NCBI GenBank assembly: GCA_040754095.1
Contig: JBFMFO010000002.1
Location: forward strand, 73,853 to 137,852
DNA: 64,000 nucleotides
Source: Thermodesulfobacteriota bacterium
GTDB taxonomy: Bacteria > Desulfobacterota > QYQD01
Reading direction: 5' to 3'
Shown piece after piece: positions 2,498 to 61,439 of this stretch; the first letter of the stretch is position 1; every line of letters begins with the position of its first letter. Made by a program: the position numbers and the translations under genes. Below the pieces are notes generated by a model that was not told where the DNA came from, did not search any database, and was given only the letters and a program-made list of their open reading frames with translations.

Positions 2498-2685
2498 GAT
2501 AAGAAGAGGTAACTACTCGGGTATCTTGCCACAAAGGCACCAAGATATCTTATATGTTTTCTTTTTGTGTCTTAGTGGCTGAATAGTTAAAAAAATAGTC
2601 AATGTTTTTTAAAAATTTGCGTTCTTTGCGTCTTGGCGGTGAAAAGGTATTACAACTGCCGGAACCTCTTTGAAAGACTTATCGT

Positions 2686-3111
2686 ATGGGCATTCGCCGG
2701 AAGGCACGAGAAAGCGCTCTTCAAATATTGTACGAAATGGACCTGACCGGGTCGGGGGCGGAAAAGGCGACGTCCGCCTTCTGCGCTTCATTTAAGATTC
2801 CGGAGCAGGCACATGATTTCTGCTTACGACTGGTCAAAGGTGTCGAGACCCATCGGGGACAAATAGATAGTTTAGTTAATGGGCATTCTGAGCACTGGCG
2901 GCTGAATCGAATGTCGCGGGTGGATCGGAATATCTTGCGGCTGGCTGCATTTGAACTCTTGTATTGTGACGACATCCCCCCTAAGGTAACTATCAACGAG
3001 GCAGTAGAGCTGGGTAAAAAATTTGGGACCGAAGACTCCGGTCCTTTTATAAATGGAATACTGGACGCCATCTACGATGCCAAGATAAAGAAGCTCATAG
3101 CTGGTAGCTGA
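2686..3111 (+). CDS. nusB: transcription antitermination factor NusB
   Basis: RRKARESALQILY N-terminus; 141 aa; classic ribH-nusB linkage. Confidence 0.9.
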   Translation: MGIRRKARESALQILYEMDLTGSGAEKATSAFCASFKIPEQAHDFCLRLVKGVETHRGQIDSLVNGHSEHWRLNRMSRVDRNILRLAAFELLYCDDIPPKVTINEAVELGKKFGTEDSGPFINGILDAIYDAKIKKLIAGS

Positions 3112-3181
3112 TGGCTCATAGCGATCAGCCATGAACCATGCGCCATGAACATTGTCAGGGTAGGAGTGATAAAACTTAGTT

Positions 3182-5702: not shown

Positions 5703-6218
5703 ATGGAGAGATACGCTAGAGTTATCATTCCGTTACTGCTATTTTTTTTCATCTCCGCCTGTGGGTATCACTTTAGCGGACAAGGCAACCCCTTTTCCGA
5801 AGATATAAAGACCATAGCTATTCCGGTATTCAGTAATCAGACGGGAGAGGCAGGGTTCGAAAATTATTTTACAAACCAGTTGGTCTATGAATTTACAAGC
5901 CGGAAAAGGCTGAAGGTGGTCGATATCAAGGATGCGGATGTCGTTCTAAAAGGTAAAATAAAGTCGATTAACCTGCCGGATATATCCTTTAGCGGCACTT
6001 ATCTGGGGCTGGAAAGGAAGGCGGTAGTTACGATAGACGCGGTATTAGAAAAACGCGACGGCAGCGTACTCTGGCAGAACAAAGACATAATCAGAGAAGA
6101 GGTCTATAAGGTGGAGAGCAGCCCCCTTACCACAGAAAGTAATAAGCAGGCGGCCCTTCATAAGATCGCCACTGACCTTGCCGAGATGATCCACATGCGG
6201 ATATTTGAAGACTTCTAA
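5703..6218 (+). CDS. lptE: LPS-assembly lipoprotein LptE-like
   Basis: Lipoprotein signal peptide with lipobox (FISACG); 171 aa; conserved position immediately after leuS. Confidence 0.6.
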   Translation: MERYARVIIPLLLFFFISACGYHFSGQGNPFSEDIKTIAIPVFSNQTGEAGFENYFTNQLVYEFTSRKRLKVVDIKDADVVLKGKIKSINLPDISFSGTYLGLERKAVVTIDAVLEKRDGSVLWQNKDIIREEVYKVESSPLTTESNKQAALHKIATDLAEMIHMRIFEDF

Positions 6219-6227
6219 TTGATGAAT

Positions 6228-6395
6228 TCGTAAAAAGCCCAAAATATCACGCAACGCCGCCAAGGACGCAAAAAAATAGAATTTGGAACTCAGGAACTCA
6301 TGAAAAAATCTTTCATTCCTGATTTTTTGATTTCCAGATTTTAATTTTTCCTTCGCGGTCTTTGCGCCTTTGCGTGAGAAATAGAAATGGCCTGT
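6228..6395 (-). repeat. MITE-like element, family A copy 1 (~170 bp; terminal inverted repeats of cgcaaag(g/a)cgcaaag type)
   Basis: About 85-90% identical to the reverse complement of 9092-9264; TIR-like ends cacgcaacgccgccaaggacgcaaa / ttcgcggtctttgcgcctttgcgtg. Confidence 0.75.
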
Positions 6396-6423
6396 ACCTG
6401 TATAGATACAAGCCATTTCTGAC

Positions 6424-6702
6424 TTAGCTTTGTGAGCCGGATTGAAGAGCGTTTACATGTCTGGTCAAACGCGAAATTTTGCGAGCAGCGTTTCTGTGAT
6501 GGAGTGTCCCCTTGGAAGCAGCCTTGTCGATGACCGGAATAGCTTTAGCCAGAGACTCCTTGGCCTTATCCGGTGATTTTTCTGCCATAGCTGTCTGGAC
6601 TGCTTTGATTACATTTTTAACCCGGGTTTTAATAGCTTTATTAATTTCCTGTTTTTTTTCAGCCTGTTTAGCCCTTTTAATCGCTGAGTTATGATTAGCC
6701 AA
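6424..6702 (-). CDS. rpsT: 30S ribosomal protein S20
   Basis: MANHNSAIKRAKQAEKK... basic 92-aa protein typical of S20. Confidence 0.9.
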   Translation of the reverse strand: MANHNSAIKRAKQAEKKQEINKAIKTRVKNVIKAVQTAMAEKSPDKAKESLAKAIPVIDKAASKGTLHHRNAARKISRLTRHVNALQSGSQS

Positions 6703-6981
6703 CTCCCGCCCTCCTTAGAAAATCCTGAATTATCTTGAACTAAAGCACTCATATAAATAATTGGTTAAAGGTATTATGTCAAGGTTTTTCCGACTCTTTG
6801 TCGGCGGCTTCGTAAAAAAAAGTCCCCAAATACCTCGCCCCCTTTTGTTAACATATATCATTTTGGTAGTGCGTATACATAATCCTGTGCTAAAATAATT
6901 TGGAATCAGAGATATATTCCCCGCCGGCTATAGCCGTCCTGGAGATATACAAATTGAAGGCGCTGGAGCGCAAAACTTAAC

Positions 6982-7845
6982 ATGCCGGAACTTCCAGAAG
7001 TCGAGAATATAGTAAGAGACCTCCGGCCAAAGCTCTGTGGTAAGTTTATAAAATGGGTTGAAATCACCCATCCTGGCATAATAGCAGGCACGCCCCGGCG
7101 CATCTCAGACCGGAAAAATAGTCTTCCAGGGCTCCTAAGAAATAAGAAAATCAAAAACCTGTCCCGGAAAGGCAAATGTATTGTCTTTGATCTGTCAAAT
7201 GGCTATGAGCTTAGCATCCATCTGGGCATGACCGGTCAATTATTATACCGGCAGAAGGGCGGGGCGATAGATCGGTATACCCGCATGGTCCTTCATCTTA
7301 ATGATAATCTACATGAATTACGCTTTGCCGATATGCGTCGTTTTGGCTGGGTTTCCCTCCGGTCGAAAATACGCCGGGGCGTGAGACCGGGTGAAGACAA
7401 AAATGCCTATCTGGATAACCTGGGGCCTGATGCCCTGACCCTCGACCTAAAAGGGTTCAAAACCTGTCTCTCTAACCGAACCGGCACAGTAAAAGGTCTC
7501 TTACTCAATCAGCATATTATAAGCGGCATGGGGAATATTTATACGGATGAAAGTCTTTATCGGGCCGACATCCATCCGCAAAAAAAGGTAAGTACGCTCA
7601 CTGAACATGAGATCAAAAGACTCCATAAGGCCATCGGGCAGATACTCAAAGAGGCTATTGTCTGTGGTGGTTCTAGTATCAGCACCTATAGGCTGCCGGA
7701 TGGAAAAGAGGGGGAATTCCAGAGACAGCATAAGGTATATCAGCGGCAAGGCAGACCGTGCCCGCGATGCAAGACGCCTATTGTCAGGATAAAGGTGGCC
7801 GGGCGGGGGACCTATTTTTGTCCAAAATGTCAAAGTGAAAATTAG
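6982..7845 (+). CDS. mutM: formamidopyrimidine-DNA glycosylase
   Basis: MPELPEVE catalytic N-terminus; C-terminal CxxC-x16-CxxC zinc finger. Confidence 0.9.
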   Translation: MPELPEVENIVRDLRPKLCGKFIKWVEITHPGIIAGTPRRISDRKNSLPGLLRNKKIKNLSRKGKCIVFDLSNGYELSIHLGMTGQLLYRQKGGAIDRYTRMVLHLNDNLHELRFADMRRFGWVSLRSKIRRGVRPGEDKNAYLDNLGPDALTLDLKGFKTCLSNRTGTVKGLLLNQHIISGMGNIYTDESLYRADIHPQKKVSTLTEHEIKRLHKAIGQILKEAIVCGGSSISTYRLPDGKEGEFQRQHKVYQRQGRPCPRCKTPIVRIKVAGRGTYFCPKCQSEN

Positions 7846-7924
7846 CGTATAGCGGAACGTTATCATGCTGACTTACTGAAGTTTTCTGAGTTGTTAGGAA
7901 ACCCCTTGTGTTTCTGAGCGAAAC

Positions 7925-8045
7925 TTGCTGGAGCAGCGGGGCCCCCTTCGCGGGCGAGCAGGAAGGGGAAAACCCGTCTTAGGCGGAAAGGGGCAAGCAT
8001 TCCCCGCCTGCGAGTCCGCTGGAGGGGGATCGCTGCGCAAGCCGT
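7925..8045 (+). other. GC-rich structured intergenic element (candidate ncRNA or cis-regulatory RNA) upstream of the radical SAM gene
   Basis: Nested G-run/C-run hairpins (ggcggaaaggggcaagcattccccgcctg; cccccttcgcggg) in an otherwise AT-rich spacer. Confidence 0.25.
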
Positions 8046-8157
8046 GAAGCGAATAAATTAAGGGGGTTCACTTAAGAAATGTAAAATTATAAATAAGATC
8101 AAGTAATATGGGATGCGTCTTTAAAAACTCAGGAACATGCTAAATTAATACGAACTC

Positions 8158-9087
8158 ATGTTCGAACCGGCCTACATAGAAACATATAGAATAAACGAGA
8201 TCAAGCCCCGCATCGAAAAAGCTAATAAAATACTTGAAGAATGTTGCCTATGTCCACGAAAATGCCGAGTTAATCGGATACAGAACGAAAAAGGGATATG
8301 CCGTACAGGCAGACTTCCCATGGTCTCCAGCTTTAGCCCGCATTTTGGAGAAGAGGCCCCGCTTGTAGGTCGGTATGGATCGGGGGCCATATTTATCACA
8401 AACTGTAATCTCCTCTGCGTTTTTTGTCAGAACTGGGAAATCAGTCACCTCGGAGAAGGCGAAGAAATCTCCCTGGAACAATTTGCCCTGCTGATGCTAT
8501 ATTTACAAAACCTAGGTTGCCATAACATCAATTTTGTCACTCCAACCCATGTTGTGCCTCAGATACTGGAGGCCCTATCCATAGCCATTGAGGGCGGACT
8601 TCGCGTCCCACTGGTTTATAATACAGGTGGGTATGATTCCATCGAAACAATTAAGCTACTGGATGGTATTTTTGATATCTATATGCCTGATTTTAAATAC
8701 TGGGATGAAGAGGTGGCCATAAGACTCTCCAAGGCGCCCGGTTACCCGGAGATAGCCGGCCAGGCCATCAAAGAAATGCACCGCCAAGTGGGCGACCTGA
8801 CTGTAGATTCCAATGGCATAGCACAACGTGGACTTCTGGTGCGCCATCTGGTCCTGCCGGATGGTCTAGCCGGGACGCGGGATGTTATGCGTTTTCTGGC
8901 CCGGGAAATATCGCCGAATACCTACGTGAATATAATGGACCAGTATCGGCCCTGCGGCGAAGCGTATAAATATCCTCCCCTTGACCGGCGTATAACTGTC
9001 GAGGAATACCGTGAGGCGATCACGATGGCCGGAGAAGAAGGGATAACCAGGCTTGACCCGCGGAAACGGACACTTATACTGTACTGA
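8158..9087 (+). CDS. radical SAM protein, PflX-like (pyruvate formate-lyase activase homologue, COG1313)
   Basis: CX3CX2C motif (CNLLCVFC) plus an N-terminal Cys cluster; 309 aa. Confidence 0.7.
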   Translation: MFEPAYIETYRINEIKPRIEKANKILEECCLCPRKCRVNRIQNEKGICRTGRLPMVSSFSPHFGEEAPLVGRYGSGAIFITNCNLLCVFCQNWEISHLGEGEEISLEQFALLMLYLQNLGCHNINFVTPTHVVPQILEALSIAIEGGLRVPLVYNTGGYDSIETIKLLDGIFDIYMPDFKYWDEEVAIRLSKAPGYPEIAGQAIKEMHRQVGDLTVDSNGIAQRGLLVRHLVLPDGLAGTRDVMRFLAREISPNTYVNIMDQYRPCGEAYKYPPLDRRITVEEYREAITMAGEEGITRLDPRKRTLILY

Positions 9088-9091
9088 CGGC

Positions 9092-9264
9092 TTCGTAAAA
9101 AGTCAATTTCTCTCGCAAAGGCGCAGAGACTGCGAAGAAAAATGAAAATCTGGAAATCAAGAAATCAGGAATAAAAGATTTTCCATGAGTTCTTGAGTCT
9201 CAAATTCTATTTTTTGCGTCCTTGGTGGCTTTGCGTGATATTTTGTAATTTTTACGAGATCGTC
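9092..9264 (+). repeat. MITE-like element, family A copy 2 (full length, TTCGTAAAAAG ... CTTTTTACGAG ends)
   Basis: Inverted-orientation copy of 6228-6395; both outer termini present. Confidence 0.75.
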
Positions 9265-9284
9265 AACATCGGGGTCTTAAGGTT

Positions 9285-9914
9285 ATGAGCGGTAAACGTA
9301 TATTCGCGGTTGGTGATATTCATGGATGCCTTGCTAAGCTGGAAGGGATGATGGGTATCCTTCCGGTTAACCTCGGCCAGGATATTCTTATCTTTCTTGG
9401 AGACTATATTAACCGCGGTCCGGCTTCCCGTGAAGTCATCGACTATCTCCTGGATTTAAAAACTAAGGCAAGTCATATGGTATTTCTCATGGGCAACCAT
9501 GAAAAGATGTTCCTGGATTATCTTGACCAGGTCAATCCCTTTTTATTCATCCTGAATGGAGGCCAGAAGACCATCGATGCCTATAGCAAAAAAAAGAAGT
9601 TTTCCCTGCCACCGGATCATCATGATTTTTTCCGTTCGCTGCGCCTTATATATGAGACAGAGGACTATATCTTTGTTCATGCCGGCCTCCGGCCTTATTT
9701 GCCGCTAAAGGACCAAAAAATAGAAGACATTCTCTGGATAAGAGAGGCCTTTTTTTCTTCTATGTACGACTTTGGCAAGAAAGTCATCTTCGGTCACACG
9801 CCATTTGGTGAGCCGCTGGTGATGGGAAACAAGATAGGCATTGACACCGGTGCAGTTTACGGCAATAAACTGACATGCGTTGAGCTGCCTGCACAAAAGT
9901 TTTATTCTTTTTGA
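9285..9914 (+). CDS. metallophosphoesterase (Ser/Thr phosphatase / ApaH-like family)
   Basis: GDIHG, GDYINRG and GNHE calcineurin-like phosphoesterase motifs. Confidence 0.7.
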   Translation: MSGKRIFAVGDIHGCLAKLEGMMGILPVNLGQDILIFLGDYINRGPASREVIDYLLDLKTKASHMVFLMGNHEKMFLDYLDQVNPFLFILNGGQKTIDAYSKKKKFSLPPDHHDFFRSLRLIYETEDYIFVHAGLRPYLPLKDQKIEDILWIREAFFSSMYDFGKKVIFGHTPFGEPLVMGNKIGIDTGAVYGNKLTCVELPAQKFYSF

Positions 9915-9971
9915 CCATATTTATACCCCCTTGTCGAGCAATCAGCACTCAGCTATCAGCATGAAGCCGGT

Positions 9972-10038
9972 CCACCGTTCACTGTTGACCGTTTACCGAA
10001 AGAAAATGTCGGACAACGGTTAACGGTTAACGGATAAC
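9972..10038 (+). repeat. CCGTT-rich hairpin repeat, family D copy 1
   Basis: ccgttcactgttgaccgtttaccgaaagaaaatgtcggacaacggttaacggttaacggataac; arms complementary. Confidence 0.6.
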
Positions 10039-10213
10039 AAACATGCTGACGGCTGATGGCGGATAGCTGAAAGCGTGAAGTTCGCCTCGGCGAATCTGCC
10101 TGTGGCACGACCGGAAACAGTAGTTCCCGGCCTATGGTCGGCCCAGGGCCGGATGAGCACTAACTACAACCCGCCAGGAATTTCTAATTAAGATTTAAGA
10201 AAAAAACCCCTCA

Positions 10214-10242
10214 TGCCGATGCAAAAAACAGTGGTAGTCCCA
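10214..10242 (+). promoter_or_regulatory. sigma-28 (FliA)-like promoter upstream of cheA (TTTAAG-N15-GCCGATGC)
   Basis: -10 GCCGAT matches the GCCGATAA consensus; TAAG-type -35 at 15-nt spacing. Confidence 0.3.
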
Positions 10243-10281
10243 TTATGTATAGTCAAATAAGGAAAACTTAGAGGGATAGAG

Positions 10282-12540: not shown

Positions 12541-12551
12541 TTATAATGAAT

Positions 12552-12636
12552 GTCATTAGTCAATAGTCATTTGTCACCGGTAAAAGAGAACAATCTTCCA
12601 CCTTCAACCAATGACCGATGACTGATGACCAGTGAC
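12552..12636 (+). repeat. GTCA-rich long hairpin repeat, family B copy 1
   Basis: gtcattagtcaatagtcatttgtcaccggtaaaag ... ccaatgaccgatgactgatgaccagtgacc; left arm nearly identical to 61307-61341. Confidence 0.7.
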
Positions 12637-12683
12637 CTTGCCTATAAGCTGAAAGCTTATATATGAAAAAGGGGAGTTAAATT

Positions 12684-17296: not shown

Positions 17297-17445
17297 GTCA
17301 TTCCCACAGCGATTCTGACTGGATTCCCAATCAAGCACCCGGTTCCTTACTGGATTCCCGCCCGCCCCGCCTCCAGCGGACCATAGGCAGAGTCGGCGTT
17401 CTCGTCCGCCCTTGTGCGGGACCTGGACGGCTTTCGCGGGAATGA
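17297..17445 (+). repeat. family E ~150-bp element with tcattccc(a/g)c(a)gcg termini and an internal actggattccc duplication
   Basis: gtcattcccacagcg ... actggattccc x2 ... GC-rich core ... ttcgcgggaatgat; lies in a 470-bp gene-free gap. Confidence 0.45.
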
Positions 17446-17565
17446 TAAATAGCATTGAGTATTTTTCCGTAAAATTAATATAATATTAACTAGACATAAT
17501 GTTATACATTATATTAATCATCAACTGATTTGATATTACGTTAATTAATTAATTTTATTTAAACC

Positions 17566-20588: not shown

Positions 20589-20641
20589 GCACACAGAGTT
20601 TTTAAAATTTAAAATTCTTTTTCTCGGTGTTCTCTGTGGTT
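20589..20641 (+). repeat. family A-like mini hairpin (cacagag variant)
   Basis: aaccacagagcacacagag - 24 nt AT-rich loop - ctcggtgttctctgtggtt; between the PilZ-PAS gene and rtcA. Confidence 0.5.
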
Positions 20642-25814: not shown

Positions 25815-25935
25815 TCCCTTTCACCTGAAAATCCCCCTCTGTCCCCCTTTTCCAAAGGGGGAATTGATGATGCTCCCGTCTTTTCCCAAGGCGAGACTTC
25901 ACGGGATCCCCCCTTAGTAAAAGGGGGGTACGGTG
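25815..25935 (-). other. poly-C/poly-G nested hairpin element between yicC and remA (candidate ncRNA or 5' leader)
   Basis: tcccccttttccaaaggggga; atccccccttagtaaaagggggg; outer aaaatccc...gggatttt pairing. Confidence 0.25.
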
Positions 25936-26011
25936 GGATTTTAAATTTTGATTGATGCCTGTTTTTTATTTATCTCTGTGTCCTCTGTGTCTCTGTGGTG
26001 AATAAGCGCTT

Positions 26012-26902: not shown

Positions 26903-26994
26903 GCTATCGGCTATCAGCGATCAGCTGTCAGCTTTATTTGACTCATGGACTTTGACTTTTGTTTTCTGATAGCTGAAAGCTGACTGCTGATAGC
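26903..26994 (+). repeat. GCTGA/TCAGC-rich hairpin repeat, family C
   Basis: gctatcagcgatcagctgtcagcttt ... ttctgatagctgaaagctgactgctgatagc; related fragments at 1926-1958, 3106-3150, 9930-9962, 10035-10075, 12637-12662, 21725-21760, 41748-41790, 53879-53912. Confidence 0.6.
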
Positions 26995-27532: not shown

Positions 27533-27610
27533 ACCGCAGAGGCCGCGGAGCACGCAGAGTTTTATCTTTATTTATATTTATCTCTGCGCCCTTTGCGCCT
27601 TTGCGGTGAA
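27533..27610 (+). repeat. family A mini-element: two TIR-like arms around an AT-rich loop
   Basis: accgcagaggccgcggagcacgcagag - ttttatctttatttatatttat - ctctgcgccctttgcgcctttgcggtgaa; ends 4 nt from the hldA stop. Confidence 0.6.
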
Positions 27611-27613
27611 TAA

Positions 27614-37359: not shown

Positions 37360-37390
37360 CTATAGGTGTAGTCACTGGTCATTAGTCAAA

Positions 37391-37496
37391 GTCAATTTTT
37401 CACGCGAAGACGCAAAGACCGCGAAGACAACGTATTGTTATCAAAGAAAAAATTTTGCGTCCTTGGCGGTTTTGCGTGATATTTTGGATTTTTTAG
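37391..37496 (+). repeat. family A short variant (two TIR-like ends, ~105 bp)
   Basis: cacgcgaagacgcaaagaccgcgaag ... ttttgcgtccttggcggttttgcgtgatatttt. Confidence 0.6.
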
Positions 37497-37529
37497 AAAC
37501 CGTCAACTCTGTGAACTCTGTGGTAACAA

Positions 37530-39565: not shown

Positions 39566-39940
39566 ATGTTGCGTTAAAACCCTCATATTTATTATGCAGC
39601 ATTCTTGATAGTCTCATAAAAAGTTCACACTGAACCAAACCGGATGAAGTTTCCACCTTGTCCTTGGGTATCTTCTGGGCCCCAAACCGACATAACCTTT
39701 CCCAATCCTTTCCGCCTGTTCATTGAAGCTCCCCGCAGCAAGCAGCGGGGAATGCGCTCGCTATGCATGTTCATAAGGAACTCTACCTGTAGTTAGCCCG
39801 CCCACGAGTAACCCTGTTATGCAATATTTTCCGTGCCGTTTTTATGACGGCATTATGTGGCTGCAAGATGGCAAAAGCAGGTTGCTTTTTAAGATGAGGT
39901 GGAGTAAAGAAGATGTCTCACATCACCTCTGGAGGGAATA

Positions 39941-41060: not shown

Positions 41061-41747
41061 TTGCTCATAACTATAGACGGGCCGGCCGGCGCAGGGAAAA
41101 GCACTGCGAGTAAGAAATTAGCCGATATTCTGGGGTATGTGTATCTGGACACCGGCGCCTTATACAGGGCCTTAGCGCTTGCTGCCCAAAAAAATAATCT
41201 TAACCCCGATAAAGGAGAAGACCTGGAAAGGCTGTGCCGCAAGCCCGCCATCGCCCTGACCTATAACGCCGGCAAACTAACGGTTATCATGGCCGGAGAG
41301 GATGTCAGTGAAGAAATCCGAGCCCCGGAGATCAGCATGCTTTCATCATATATCTCGGCCAAGCCGATGGTCAGAGAATCCTTGCTGGAGATGCAAAGGG
41401 ACATCGGTAAAAGGGGAGGCGTAGTGGCGGAAGGAAGAGATATGGGAACCGTGGTCTTCCCCGATGCCGATGTCAAATTTTATCTTGACGCTTCACCGGA
41501 AGAAAGGGCCTCAAGAAGGCACAAAGAACTACTGCAAAAAGGCAATAGCCCGGATTACAACCAGGTCTATAAGGAAATGTTAAAAAGAGACGCCAACGAC
41601 AGCAGCCGGGCCGTAGCCCCGTTAATACCTGCCCCGGATGCTATTTTTGTAGATAGCACAGATAAAAGCATAGATGAGGTAATTGCCTTCATGCTGGCCA
41701 AGATAGAAGAAGGGGAAAGGTCAAAATCTAAAGTTCATGGCTCATAG
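41061..41747 (+). CDS. cmk: cytidylate kinase
   Basis: ITIDGPAGAGKST P-loop at the N-terminus; start inferred at a TTG at 41061 (the six-frame ORF from 40974 overlaps hisC). Confidence 0.85.
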   Translation: MLITIDGPAGAGKSTASKKLADILGYVYLDTGALYRALALAAQKNNLNPDKGEDLERLCRKPAIALTYNAGKLTVIMAGEDVSEEIRAPEISMLSSYISAKPMVRESLLEMQRDIGKRGGVVAEGRDMGTVVFPDADVKFYLDASPEERASRRHKELLQKGNSPDYNQVYKEMLKRDANDSSRAVAPLIPAPDAIFVDSTDKSIDEVIAFMLAKIEEGERSKSKVHGS

Positions 41748-41837
41748 CTGATGGCTGAAATCTGATTGCTGAAAGCGTGAATCTGGAAACAGTAGTTTCC
41801 GGATGAACAAAGTTAGATATTAAATCCGTGAAACAGG

Positions 41838-44589: not shown

Positions 44590-44657
44590 CTCCGCTTTGC
44601 TACGCAATTGGAATACTGGGATATGTGTGAAAAATAAATAACGGGCAGGTGTATCTT

Positions 44658-44936
44658 ATGGTTAAAAGCGATCTAATAAATCAACTAAGCGTACGGTTCC
44701 CTAAATATTACAAAAAAGACATACAGGTCATAGTGGATACCATCTTTGAGACCATGCAAAAATCTCTATCTCAAGGCAGGCGTGTAGAAATAAGAGGTTT
44801 TGGCACTTTTAATCCCCGGATGAGGAAGTCACGCCTAAGTAAAAATCCAAAGACCGGGGCGGCAATGGAATTAAAGGCCAGGAGAACAGTCCTCTTCAAG
44901 ATGGGTAGAGAACTTAAAAAGTCCTTAGCTGAATAG
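44658..44936 (+). CDS. ihfB: integration host factor beta subunit / HU-family DNA-binding protein
   Basis: MVKSDLINQL...RVEIRGFGTF...NPKTG HU/IHF fold signature; sits downstream of rpsA as in many proteobacteria. Confidence 0.7.
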   Translation: MVKSDLINQLSVRFPKYYKKDIQVIVDTIFETMQKSLSQGRRVEIRGFGTFNPRMRKSRLSKNPKTGAAMELKARRTVLFKMGRELKKSLAE

Positions 44937-53291: not shown

Positions 53292-53885
53292 ATGTCTGAA
53301 TTAAAGAAAATCCTGGAGGCCTTGATATTCGTCTCCGAAACACCGCTCCGCCGGGATAAGATTATCGATGCCCTCCCGGAATACAAAAAGGAGGAGATAG
53401 AGGCGACCCTGATTCAACTCAAGGACGAATACGATGCCGAAGGCCGCAGCTTCGCCCTTTATGAGGTAGCCGAAGGCTTCCAGTTCAGGACAAGGCCTGA
53501 ATACCGGGATTGGATCGCCCGCCTGAAAAAATCCGCTCCGGCGCGACTCAGCCGCGAGGCCATGGAAACGCTGGCCATTATCGCCTACAAGCAACCCATA
53601 TTGCGGTCTGAAATAGAAAGGATCCGGGGGGTAGATGTGAGCGGCGTTCTGAAATCGCTTCTGGAGAAAAAACTTATTCGCATCGTGGGACGCAACAAGG
53701 AATTAGCCGGGAAACCCCTTATCTATGGGACCACCCAAAGATTTTTAGAGGTATTTGATCTAAGGGATCTGTCCTCCCTTCCCAGTCTTAAAGAAATCAA
53801 GGCCCTTACTCCTGATACTGTCGAGGGCAAAGAAAGGACTCCGGACCTCTTTGACCGGTCTGAGGGAACCGGAGTTGATAGCTGA
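53292..53885 (+). CDS. scpB: segregation and condensation protein B
   Basis: ILEALIFVSETPL N-terminus and tandem winged-helix ScpB pattern. Confidence 0.85.
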   Translation: MSELKKILEALIFVSETPLRRDKIIDALPEYKKEEIEATLIQLKDEYDAEGRSFALYEVAEGFQFRTRPEYRDWIARLKKSAPARLSREAMETLAIIAYKQPILRSEIERIRGVDVSGVLKSLLEKKLIRIVGRNKELAGKPLIYGTTQRFLEVFDLRDLSSLPSLKEIKALTPDTVEGKERTPDLFDRSEGTGVDS

Positions 53886-53914
53886 CGGCTGAACGCTGAT
53901 AGCTGGAATGTTTT

Positions 53915-54670
53915 ATGGAAGAAAGGCTGCATAAGACATTGGCCCGGCTCGGGATCGCCTCGCGAAGACACGCCGAAGATCTTATTCGCCAGGGCAAAGT
54001 TACGCTAAATGGCCGCATAGTTACCGCCATGGGTATAAAGGTGGATACCGAAAAGGATATGATCCTCATCGATGGCAGGCCGCTACCGCCCCCGGCGCCT
54101 CTTATCTATGTCCTGCTAAATAAGCCCAGGGGATATGTTACCACGCTGCGGGATCCCCAAAAAAGGCCGATAGTTACCGACCTCATGAAAGATATATCTG
54201 TCCGTGTCTGTCCGGTGGGAAGGCTGGATTACGACACCGAGGGTCTTCTATTGCTTACCAATGACGGGGACTTGTCCTTTAAACTCCAGCACCCGCGTTT
54301 TAAGGCGTACAAGACCTACGAAGCAGAGGTAAAAGGGAGACCTGCGAAGCAGGCTATTGATCGCCTGAGAAACGGAGTTATTATAGAAGACCGCAAGACG
54401 CAGCCTGCCCTGCTTAAGTGCCTCCGGGAAGGAGAAGATTCATCTCTTCTGGAGATAACCATCCGGGAAGGCCGGAAAAGGCAGATAAAAAAGATGTGCG
54501 CAATCATAGGGCACCCCGTGCTCAACCTGCGCCGTACAGCTTTTGCCGATCTCAAATTGGGTCATCTGGCCCCTGGCCAGTACCGGCTTCTCCGCCCGGA
54601 AGAGGTCAGAAAACTCAAAAATTACGTAACCATGCAGCCACAAAGTCGCCAAGACGCAAAGAATGGATAA
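53915..54670 (+). CDS. rluB: rRNA pseudouridine synthase (RluB/RsuA family)
   Basis: S4 domain (RLHKTLARLGIASRR) plus PseudoU_synth_2 catalytic motif (GRLDYDTEGLLLLTNDG). Confidence 0.85.
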   Translation: MEERLHKTLARLGIASRRHAEDLIRQGKVTLNGRIVTAMGIKVDTEKDMILIDGRPLPPPAPLIYVLLNKPRGYVTTLRDPQKRPIVTDLMKDISVRVCPVGRLDYDTEGLLLLTNDGDLSFKLQHPRFKAYKTYEAEVKGRPAKQAIDRLRNGVIIEDRKTQPALLKCLREGEDSSLLEITIREGRKRQIKKMCAIIGHPVLNLRRTAFADLKLGHLAPGQYRLLRPEEVRKLKNYVTMQPQSRQDAKNG

Positions 54671-55980: not shown

Positions 55981-56127
55981 GCAAATATAACGCATTGACC
56001 TGGGCCTGTCTTTCCTTTAGAATTTAAAGCCAGGGCGCAGATAGAAACATCTCAAATTTCAAATTTGAGATTTAAGATGTTTCCTTTGCGTCTCTGCGGT
56101 GAACTTTTTGATAATACGAAATAATTC

Positions 56128-60838: not shown

Positions 60839-61321
60839 ATGACCAAACCGGATCAAACAAACGTGGTAGAAATCTTCACAGACGGGGCGTGCAGCGGGAA
60901 CCCCGGGCCGGGCGGATGGGGCGTTATCCTGCGCTTTGGGGCGCATGAAAAAGAGTTGTCCGGATTCAACCCGGATACTACCAATAACCGCATGGAGCTT
61001 CTGGCCGCCATACGGGCCCTGGAAAGCCTGAAAAAACCTTGCCGGGTTATATTAACCACGGATTCGGCCTATCTCAAAAACGGCATTACCACCTGGATAC
61101 ATAACTGGAAAAAAAGAGGCTGGTGTAAGAGCAATAAAAAGCCGGTGGAAAATGTGGATTTGTGGCAGCGGCTTGACACCTTAGCATCCCGGCACAATAT
61201 CGAATGGCGCTGGGTTCGCGGCCATCAGGGACACCCGGAAAATGACCGCGCCGACCGGTTAGCGGTTTCCGCCATTAAAAAGGCCCTGGCCGGTGAGATA
61301 GTGGATGTCATTAGTCAATAG
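60839..61321 (+). CDS. rnhA: ribonuclease HI
   Basis: [15 protein letters not shown] ... RMEL ... TDS ... catalytic DEDD pattern; the last 5 codons lie inside a GTCA-rich hairpin repeat. Confidence 0.9.
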
Positions 61322-61392
61322 TCAGTTGTCACTGGTAAAAGTGATCCATCTTTCCAACTTAATCAATGACTAATGACCAGTGACCAGTGACG
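61307..61392 (+). repeat. GTCA-rich long hairpin repeat, family B copy 2 (overlaps the rnhA stop)
   Basis: gtcattagtcaatagtcagttgtcactggtaaaag ... aatcaatgactaatgaccagtgaccagtgacg. Confidence 0.7.
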
Positions 61393-61439
61393 TTTTAAAT
61401 TTTGGCATTGATTTGAACTTTTAACTTTGAACTTTTAAC

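Follow-up and report, generated by a model that had tools for sequence, protein, structure and literature searches.

Which kind of element is repeated, in opposite orientations, on either side of rpsT, mutM and a radical SAM gene in a Thermodesulfobacteriota bacterium, and by what means could it spread? The pair lies in a stretch of 64,000 nucleotides (GenBank assembly GCA_040754095.1, contig JBFMFO010000002.1, positions 73,853 to 137,852), which was analysed as a whole and is called the window here; its GC content is 47.5%, and close homologues come from metagenome-assembled genomes (MAGs) named Thermodesulfobacteriota or Desulfovibrionales. In many environmental bacteria, intergenic DNA is full of short hairpin repeats, whose origin and manner of spread have been explained only for the system of repetitive extragenic palindromic (REP) sequences and REP-associated tyrosine transposases (RAYTs). 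The first-pass annotation of the window had described the pair as miniature inverted-repeat transposable elements (MITEs) that might invert the segment between them. According to our analysis, the element is instead a nested hairpin of three layers with an exchangeable interior, and we put the probability at roughly 55% that the window copies are non-autonomous derivatives or relatives of hairpin elements associated with GxxExxY nuclease genes.

Copies of the element in the window and elsewhere

The inverted pair represents one gene-less element of ~180 bp, present at 6219-6388 on the minus strand and at 9085-9266 on the plus strand. With 9080-9275 as the query, blastn finds the opposite-strand match 6219-6382 in the window (87.2% identity over 164 nt, E 5e-49), which confirms that there are two inverted copies, and a repeat search resolves the similarity between them into four collinear inverted blocks of 86-93%. 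An nhmmer profile detects the two long copies with E-values of 4e-61 and 6e-58, and a third copy at 37374-37509 (E 3e-34) that has both ends in common with them and an interior that is short and unrelated. A pattern of the right arm (20 specified bases, at most 3 mismatches) matches in exactly three places in the window, with 0 expected from 100 shuffles. The genes around the pair are, according to Pfam, leuS, lptE, rpsT (minus strand), mutM, the radical SAM gene, a metallophosphoesterase gene and cheA; the bracketed genes rpsT, mutM and radical SAM had been named correctly.

Scans of genome collections and metagenomes add 13 distinct sites with copies that are 87-92% identical, which bears out the description of a dispersed, non-coding element with inverted repeats. 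Assemblies break within it: every Logan short-read contig that has the radical SAM gene comes to an end 74 nt into the element, as is typical of a repeat. A local duplication confined to this locus, without any wider family, would account for the closeness of the two copies and for nothing else; given the third copy 28 kb away and the 13 further sites in other genomes and metagenomes, we give it next to no credence.

Layered anatomy of a modular hairpin

Three layers emerge when the window copies are aligned with copies in other genomes (loci outside the window carry L numbers). The outermost is the inverted repeat TTGAyGnnTTCGTAAAAAG ... CTTTTTACGAnnTCrTCAA. Both of its sides are present in the copy at 9092 and one side only in the copy at 6228, in L014 and in L028; elsewhere it is decayed, and this outer module is lineage-specific. 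Inside it lie core arms of ~27 nt (left TCACGCAAAGGCGCAAAGACCGCGAAG, right TTTTGCGTCCTTGGCGGCTTTGCGTGA), each with three CGCAAAG units at 8-9-nt spacing. Ends built as inverted repeats of CGCAAAG units had been claimed at the outset, and the full copy does carry TTCGTAAAAAG / CTTTTTACGAG. The left and right core arms are imperfectly complementary, with mismatches that recur at identical positions, and the arm TCACGCAAAGGCGCAAAGACCGCGAAG consists of three direct units and is not self-complementary. The innermost layer is 26 nt long in the short form and ~80 nt in the long form, where it is itself an inverted repeat of GAAATCA / TGAGTTC units.

These layers combine variously, and interiors are swapped or flipped in place, which is at odds with a single unit bounded by fixed terminal repeats. 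Core arms also occur in elements without the outer module, the L045 copy has a left arm of the CACAGAG type, and in L039, L040 and L044 an extra module is nested inside the long interior. Two small modules, CCCCGCAGCAAGCAGCGGGGAATGCG... and GGTCGTGCCACAGGCAGATTCGCCGAGGCGAAC, recur in the window at 39731-39773 and 10081-10113, in L028 at 171-213, and in the interiors of L039, L040 and L044; it is GGTCGTGCCACAGGCAGATTCGCCGAGGCGAAC that is nested within the long interior of the element at these three loci.

Copy B (9085..9266, +) is the full long form. Its left outer module (9085-9102) contributes the TGA that serves as the stop codon of the radical SAM gene; the left core arm (TCTCGCAAAGGCGCAGAGACTGCGAAG) follows at 9111-9137, then the interior at 9138-9211, itself an inverted repeat of the two units mentioned above, the right core arm at 9212-9238 and the right outer module at 9248-9266. 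Copy A (6219..6388, -) is a long form without the left outer module. Read on the plus strand, it consists of the reverse complement of the right outer module (TTGATGAATTCGTAAAAAG, 6219-6237), that of the right core arm (6247-6273), the interior (6274-6350) and the reverse complement of the left core arm (6351-6377). It begins directly 3' of the lptE stop codon and abuts a conserved hairpin at 6385-6420. This stem-loop, with a T-rich tract, stands directly downstream of rpsT and is probably its terminator; it is kept in L032 and L034 while the adjacent repeat varies. A mechanically predicted open reading frame (ORF) of 123 aa at 6045-6416 (-), which spans copy A and the end of lptE, is almost certainly spurious. 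Copy C (37391..37506, +) is a short form with the left core arm at 37400-37426, a 26-nt interior (ACAACGTATTGTTATCAAAGAAAAAA), the right core arm at 37453-37479 and then the right outer module; it is flanked by GTCA heptamers (37361-37388) and CTCTGTG units (37508-37524).

As RNA, copy B folds into a single long hairpin (minimum free energy -61.9 kcal/mol, z -5.5), and the fold z-scores range from -5.5 to -2.4. In two of the three window copies, G-U pairs give the forward strand the better fold. The base of the hairpin reads TCACGC...GCGTGA and has no AAC/GTT cores. An integron attC site was considered and rejected, since the R''/R' core sites (RYYYAAC ... GTTRRRY) are missing there.

Turnover of copies among close relatives

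Several relatives are syntenic with the window, and two of them, L032 and L034, diverge from it by 12.1% and 16.6% at four-fold sites and by 5.6% and 7.5% overall. All three window copies are polymorphic among genomes with ~92-95% coding DNA identity, and for each of the three sites there is at least one relative that has no hairpin, or another one, in that place. Site 1 (lptE / rpsT) is occupied by a different small hairpin in L034. At site 2 (radical SAM / phosphoesterase), the long form found in the window and L032 faces an 11-nt gap, hence an empty site, in L034; L036 has a short interior here, and its core module is flipped relative to the outer module (70/81 positions are identical when flipped vs 57/84 unflipped). 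Site 3 is empty in L058; the window and L055 have the short form there, and L057 has the long one. Short and long forms are also found at a fourth site, 3' of a response-regulator gene (short in L004, L037 and L046, long in L041 and L042). The interior is exchanged at three independent sites and flipped at one, and the arms stay. Throughout the first 15 kb, almost every intergenic hairpin varies in presence, replacement or nesting among the window, L032 and L034. Copies of these elements turn over quickly: at about 12% divergence at four-fold sites, each window copy is already lacking or replaced in some relative.

The swapped interiors suggest that copies undergo ectopic conversion with one another; no product of a crossover was observed. 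The proposed inversion of the 2.7-kb segment is unsupported, because lptE, rpsT, mutM and the radical SAM gene have the same order and orientation in the window, L032 and L034. The longest exact run common to the two copies, 16 nt, also speaks against inversion by recombination; efficient RecA recombination needs an exact match of roughly 25 nt. The elements probably do not drive an inversion of rpsT-mutM.

Junctions and genomic placement

If the element were a classical MITE, it would be the deletion derivative of an insertion sequence (IS) with a DDE transposase and the same terminal inverted repeats, moved by cut-and-paste and leaving target-site duplications. Its small size, inverted ends, lack of coding sequence, many copies and presence/absence polymorphism fit this description, which was that of the first-pass annotation. 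However, no consistent target-site duplication appeared in three comparisons of filled with empty sites; the junctions show only microhomologies of 3-6 nt (TGA/TTGA), and a 9-nt direct repeat that flanks the L043 copy overlaps conserved element sequence. The ends are layered, and either outer module may be missing; the exchange and flipping of interiors in place are equally foreign to a MITE. In ~25 copies there is no gene between the ends. No transposase or integrase domain was found among 58/61 window ORFs – the absence of a transposase from the window had been noted before – or among 20 ORFs flanking arm-bearing loci, and searches with the element in viral contigs and PLSDB plasmids returned no match. 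We judge a classical MITE to be very unlikely.

Placement raises another possibility. Copies sit just 3' of stop codons, between co-directional or convergent genes and in either orientation; relative to the genes, 3 are sense, 2 antisense, 4 convergent and 1 divergent. The position directly after stop codons, the rarity of copies in divergent promoter regions and the stability of the hairpin would suit a structural element that serves the host, either as a 3' stem-loop or stabiliser or as the site of a nucleoid protein, and that has spread by recombination only, with GxxExxY cassettes landing beside hairpins. Orthologous copies diverge somewhat less than four-fold sites, the right arm in Chloroflexota ends in GAGAGGA 5-8 nt before the ATG, a possible ribosome-binding site, and binding of IHF/HU is proposed for architecturally identical sites in Geobacter metallireducens (Aklujkar et al. 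2009, PMC2700814). On the other hand, such a function agrees poorly with the presence of both orientations relative to transcription, with a stem that lacks compensatory changes and with the lack of a T-tract.

Signals of expression are at chance level as well. A promoter and terminator scan of 5900-9600 gave counts no higher than in shuffled sequence and no terminator-like site in either copy; two promoter-like matches that overlap the left end of copy B (9053-9080 + and 9106-9078 -) fall within this chance-level count. Rfam yielded no match at gathering score in the whole window, and in 5900-9600 the only match with E<1 was Thr_leader, an insignificant one (E 0.42) located on the rpsT terminator. 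Furthermore, the sites are freely empty in close relatives. This holds even for site 2, which lies between two genes that are probably co-transcribed and which is empty in L034. Identical arms in unrelated phyla, and a unit sequence that tracks the divergence of the GxxExxY protein, would also be hard to explain. A host-serving origin is therefore unlikely in our view.

The core arm in other phyla

How far does the core arm extend beyond this lineage? A scan of 596 Gb with the right-arm pattern (20 specified bases), for which ~1 match would be expected by chance, found 29 loci, with GC contents from 36% to 68%, in MAGs labelled Thermodesulfobacteriota/Desulfobacterales, Acidobacteriota, Anaerolineae, Bacteroidota, Verrucomicrobiota and Gammaproteobacteria. 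About 25 of them carry the longer consensus CTTTGCGTCCTTGGCGGCTTTGCGTGA, and 3-4 matches (L003, L008 and L027 among them) are coincidences within coding sequence. The partner arm TCACGCnAAGnCGCAAAGnnCGCAAAG is usually located 11-150 nt from the right arm; the order is either left arm, loop, right arm or right arm, spacer, left arm, and some loci form tandem arrays. The core arm recurs in Chloroflexota, Acidobacteriota, Bacteroidota, Verrucomicrobiota and Proteobacteria, and, judged by their sequence, the core arms of the window element belong to a cross-phylum family of three-unit arms. Searching the literature by arm sequence produced only primer noise, and nothing was found when ISGme8/9 were sought in supplementary material.

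Three-unit arms beside GxxExxY genes

In 2 of the 29 loci from this unbiased sample, a gene for a 127-aa protein of the GxxExxY / PDDEXK_3 family (PF13366, TIGR04256) lies directly between arms. One is L013 (Anaerolineales), with the order hsdM, two hairpins, GxxExxY gene, two hairpins; the other, L026, belongs to a gammaproteobacterial MAG. Three-unit arms accompany the gene in 10/10 independent loci with a protein identity to the query of 43% or more, namely L013, L026, L047-49, L050-53, L054, L059-68, L069 (Bernardetia), L070 (Gemmatirosa), L071 (Sphingomonas) and L072 (Bacteroides finegoldii). The GxxExxY loci with arms comprise Chloroflexota, Gamma- and Alphaproteobacteria, Bacteroidota and Gemmatimonadota. 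The arm type proposed here as associated with the gene is (T)TCAC and then three C[GA]C[N][AG][AG]G units spaced 8-9 nt apart, with an imperfect complement as partner; the core arms of the window fit this type. The right arm of the lineage copies is identical over 23 nt to an arm flanking the L013 gene. Left and right arms bracket the gene in Bernardetia and B. finegoldii (e.g. TTCACCACAGAGGACGCAGAGGACACGGAGGA – gene – CTCTGTGACCTCTGTGTCCTCTGTGGTGAA), and in Sphingomonas the arms are found on its upstream side only. A candidate partner gene that shares the arms of the element does exist, yet it encodes a predicted PD-(D/E)XK nuclease, not a transposase, and was seen only in other lineages.

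The unit sequence shifts as the protein diverges: CGCAAAG is followed by CGCAGAG/CACAGAG and, below 40% identity, by different repeats. Three distant homologues (33-37%; Treponema, Fusobacteria, Prevotella) are flanked by CACGGATTCG/CGAATCCGTG, AATCCGTGTACC and three copies of ACAAATCG. As a background control, 50 kb of Bernardetia DNA has clear arms of the three-unit type at the GxxExxY gene and nowhere else. Those arms were recognised by eye, because the regular expression misses their spacing; the expression itself picked up a lone two-unit match (position 1145) and not a single three-unit arm. B. finegoldii (24.8 kb) and Gemmatirosa (50 kb) contain, besides the arms at the gene, several gene-less hairpins built from these arms, as would be expected if gene-bearing and miniature forms coexist in one genome. 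Many GxxExxY contigs are shorter than 1.5 kb, which suggests flanking repeats.

As an observation apart, L047 and L048 (GCA_034432975.1 and GCA_034434035.1) encode an identical GxxExxY protein after a fumarase gene and differ in the genes downstream, so that cassette and hairpins coincide with a break in synteny.

The GxxExxY family is listed in the literature as being of unknown function, with multiple transfers between divisions. The structure model of the protein (pLDDT 91) has a minimal PD-(D/E)XK fold, and its best fold matches according to Foldseek are Cas4 and lambda exonuclease (E 1e-4, TM ~0.5); a sequence search of the PDB gave no match. The D, ExK and QxxxY residues stand out in the alignment, where E77, K79, Q91 and Y95 never vary and at least 90% of the sequences have D67. 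The model predicts a small RecB/Cas4-like PD-(D/E)XK nuclease.

A proposed nuclease-associated origin

In the reading that we prefer, the loop of a hairpin element can carry a GxxExxY gene, in or beside it. The nuclease would recognise or cut the arms, or a cruciform or hairpin formed by them, and repair templated by another arm-sharing copy would then spread or swap the loop content, a gene conversion that resembles homing. Arm-guided break repair or gene conversion of this kind could explain why interiors are swapped and flipped in place. For the host, the elements' role is on this view probably limited to stem-loops in transcripts. A broader proposal is that three-unit arms and GxxExxY constitute a previously unrecognised class of mobile element across phyla, with a putative nuclease that recognises arms or cruciforms and a homing-like spread into gene-less hairpins; this we put forward tentatively and with the odds against it.

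Several observations weigh against deriving the window elements in this way. By tblastn, no GxxExxY gene was found, except in L013 and L026, in ~448 kb of DNA that takes in the window, the relatives syntenic with it and the arm-bearing loci of other phyla, so that the lineage is tied to the gene through its arm sequence. No GxxExxY gene was seen next to an outer module or a long interior. The Chloroflexota gene has a complete hairpin on either side and is not enclosed by one, and a cassette may accordingly target or adjoin hairpins instead of owning them. Deletion of an unstable palindrome, and not a lack of insertion, could account for the empty sites. Finally, orthologous copies diverge by 7.4% (26/352) vs 12.1% at four-fold sites and arm substitutions are uncompensated, which together indicate a sequence constraint that is weak at best, and samples defined by arms are biased by the search pattern.

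A different enzyme would be required if the arms act as REP sequences and their inverted doublet is the mobile unit, as in REP doublets forming hairpins (REPINs) or bacterial interspersed mosaic elements (BIMEs), moved as single-stranded DNA by a single-copy HUH protein of the RAYT or IS200/IS605 type. The hairpin-doublet architecture, with arms in both orders and in tandem clusters, the lack of target-site duplications and the location in gene 3' regions all resemble such a system; moreover, both polymorphic left junctions carry TTGAT or TTGGTG, which recalls the target-adjacent insertion of IS200/IS605 elements. We dropped TTGAT as a target of the IS200/IS605 type, since TTGAy is part of the conserved outer module in other copies. 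Taken singly, an arm has neither a palindromic structure nor a conserved head of the GTAG type, and an identical 27-mer occurs across phyla, whereas REP sequences are species-specific. No RAYT/Y1 gene was found beside any of ~45 loci, no search having been aimed at RAYT, four-helix-bundle or other small cargo genes, and the gene that does recur beside the arms codes for a PD-(D/E)XK nuclease rather than a HUH protein. Taken together, movement by a HUH enzyme appears rather improbable.

An origin associated with GxxExxY, if true, would explain repeats that are common to unrelated phyla, assembly breaks at GxxExxY genes and nested 'Russian-doll' repeats. The broader proposal of a mobile class would account for intergenic repeats that are nested and change rapidly, and would assign a function to a large family (PF13366/TIGR04256) with thousands of members of unknown function, which is the candidate partner here. 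The locus makes the question tractable, as near-identical genomes can be compared at three sites whose state is empty, short, long or flipped.

Sister unit families and neighbouring repeats

What are the shorter members and solo ends that had been listed beside the inverted pair? Their nhmmer E-values range from 0.01 to 5. Among the shorter members, 37391-37496 is a full short-form copy (copy C), and two others are hairpins of sister families. The one listed at 27533-27610 is a complete small hairpin (27533..27613) of the CGCAGAG/CTTTGCG family (ACCGCAGAGGCCGCGGAGCACGCAGAG – loop – CTCTGCGCCCTTTGCGCCTTTGCGGTGAA), directly 3' of a stop codon, with arms of the type that flanks GxxExxY in Gemmatirosa (L070); the one at 20589..20641 is a complete small hairpin of the CACAGAG/CTCTGTG unit family. 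Three of the solo ends (2617-2643, 25966-25996 and 56083-56103) are indeed single arms. A three-unit arm (TTTGCGTTCTTTGCGTCTTGGCGGTGAA) occupies 2616..2646 and has a decayed orthologue in L034 and an extra insertion inside it in L032. Another (CTCTGTG x3 + GTGAA), at 25963..26005, adjoins a gene's stop codon and is of the same type as the arms that bracket GxxExxY in B. finegoldii (L072). The third, a two-unit arm (CCTTTGCGTCTCTGCGGTGAA), is situated at 56083..56106, 25 nt upstream of a gene start. At 6795..6830 there is an outer module only, and a possible one (GGCGGCTTCGTAAAAAAAAGTC), the match being weak (14 nt exact, E 0.09). Most of the supposed solo ends are members of sister unit families and not ends of the 180-bp element.

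Unit families in the intergenic hairpin arms of the window include GCTGAnn, nnnGTCA, ACCGTT, CACAGAG and CGCAGAG, with units of 7-9 nt in tandem. By reading, unit-repeat arms are present in 18 of ~25 co-directional or convergent gaps vs 0-1 of 5 divergent ones. Hairpins or arms of the GCTGAnn / nnTCAGC type, often ending in GCGTGAA, are located at 1922-1953, 3091-3127, 9950-10079, 26905-26993, 41731-41781 and 53877-53916. That at 9950-10079 has a second hairpin of ACCGTT heptamers nested in its loop; L032 has the outer hairpin only, and L034 has none. Heptamer hairpins of the nnnGTCA / TGACnnn type occur at 12543-12639, 61298-61394 and 37361-37388, the first two being copies that are 79% identical at a distance of 48.7 kb. 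Quite different unit hairpins (TCAGC; GGGTT/AACTCG units) are found at the cheA/cheY site of L034.

Some genes end within repeat arms, from which they take their stop codon and final residues, as at 3091-3111 (nusB), 41731-41747 (cmk) and 9085-9087 (radical SAM); for this reason, the C-terminus of nusB differs among the window, L032 and L034. Annotation is affected in practice: neighbouring genes gain stop codons and C-terminal residues from the elements, which also seed spurious ORFs and false 'hypothetical proteins'.

Further repeats populate the window. The gap between mutM and the radical SAM gene contains a GC-rich, highly self-complementary block of ~300 nt (7846-8157), which is conserved with internal replacements in L032; L034 has in its place 70 nt composed of the outer-module-like TTGATGCATTTGTAAAAAAG and a single arm of the CGCAGAG type. 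A separate module, CCCCCTTTTCCAAAGGGGGAATTGA..., is present at 25819-25877 of the window, at 31-69 and 1229-1267 of L018 and at 1215-1274 of L028, with 87-92% identity to other Thermodesulfobacteriota MAGs. A repeat of the GTCATTCCCRCAGCGATTCTGA...GGGAATC type is found at 17300-17450, in the long gap between cheB and a sigma-54 activator gene; L034 has it at a different site (10190-10260, cheA/cheY).

Comparison with known systems

MITEs such as Correia/NEMIS and the cyanobacterial Nezha are non-coding, intergenic elements of 100-200 bp with inverted ends and presence/absence polymorphism between strains. The window element is similar in all of these respects, and differs from them in that it is modular and nested and in that no target-site duplication, fixed ends or cognate DDE IS were found. 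In Nostoc, Elhai and colleagues reportedly described in 2008 small dispersed modules in hairpins and tandem heptamers (short tandemly repeated repetitive sequences, STRRs) that are nested and lack target-site duplications; these, too, are said to be present or absent between close relatives. We know of no partner gene identified for the Nostoc repeats, and the family described here occurs in other organisms and has other sequences.

The proposed spread by break repair from an occupied copy recalls homing systems. In homing endonuclease genes and the ORF-bearing intervening sequences of 23S rRNA, the loop of an extended stem accommodates a small ORF that is selfish or of nuclease type. In contrast to these, the window family involves no intron or intein, and its 'empty alleles' are multi-copy, dispersed hairpins.

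The nearest published description is that of paired tandem octa-, nona- and heptanucleotide sites in Geobacter metallireducens, termed 'predicted global regulator binding sites' of classes 1-3 (Aklujkar et al. 2009, PMC2700814). According to this description, tens of copies, mostly intergenic, occur in a member of the Desulfobacterota; class 2 consists of three units of TCTCCGTS[Y], and IHF/HU is proposed to bind the sites (PMC2700814). The window itself contains a gene for an HU-family DNA-binding protein (44649-44936), which is relevant only through the proposal made for Geobacter. The Geobacter sites have 3-5 tandem units of 7-9 nt per arm, with the arms on opposite strands at a variable distance; in the window element, there are three units per arm and 11 to ~150 nt between arms, a comparison of descriptions and not of sequences. 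The Geobacter units differ in sequence, and the passages that describe them do not report mobility, nesting, spread across phyla, a mechanism, a partner gene or a link to GxxExxY (PMC2700814).

In mechanistic terms, the closest analogue would be the REPIN/REP-RAYT system together with BIMEs (Bertels & Rainey 2011, PMC3116915). Like the window family, it features short, non-autonomous hairpin doublets that are clustered or nested in gene 3' regions, without target-site duplications, and its partner gene is flanked by the same repeats (PMC3116915). REP units are palindromic and species-specific and their partner is a HUH tyrosine transposase (PMC3116915), whereas the arm described here consists of three direct units and crosses phyla, and its recurring partner is a predicted PD-(D/E)XK nuclease. 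By analogy, the window family may represent a counterpart of REPIN-RAYT that is built on another enzyme superfamily and another repeat unit.

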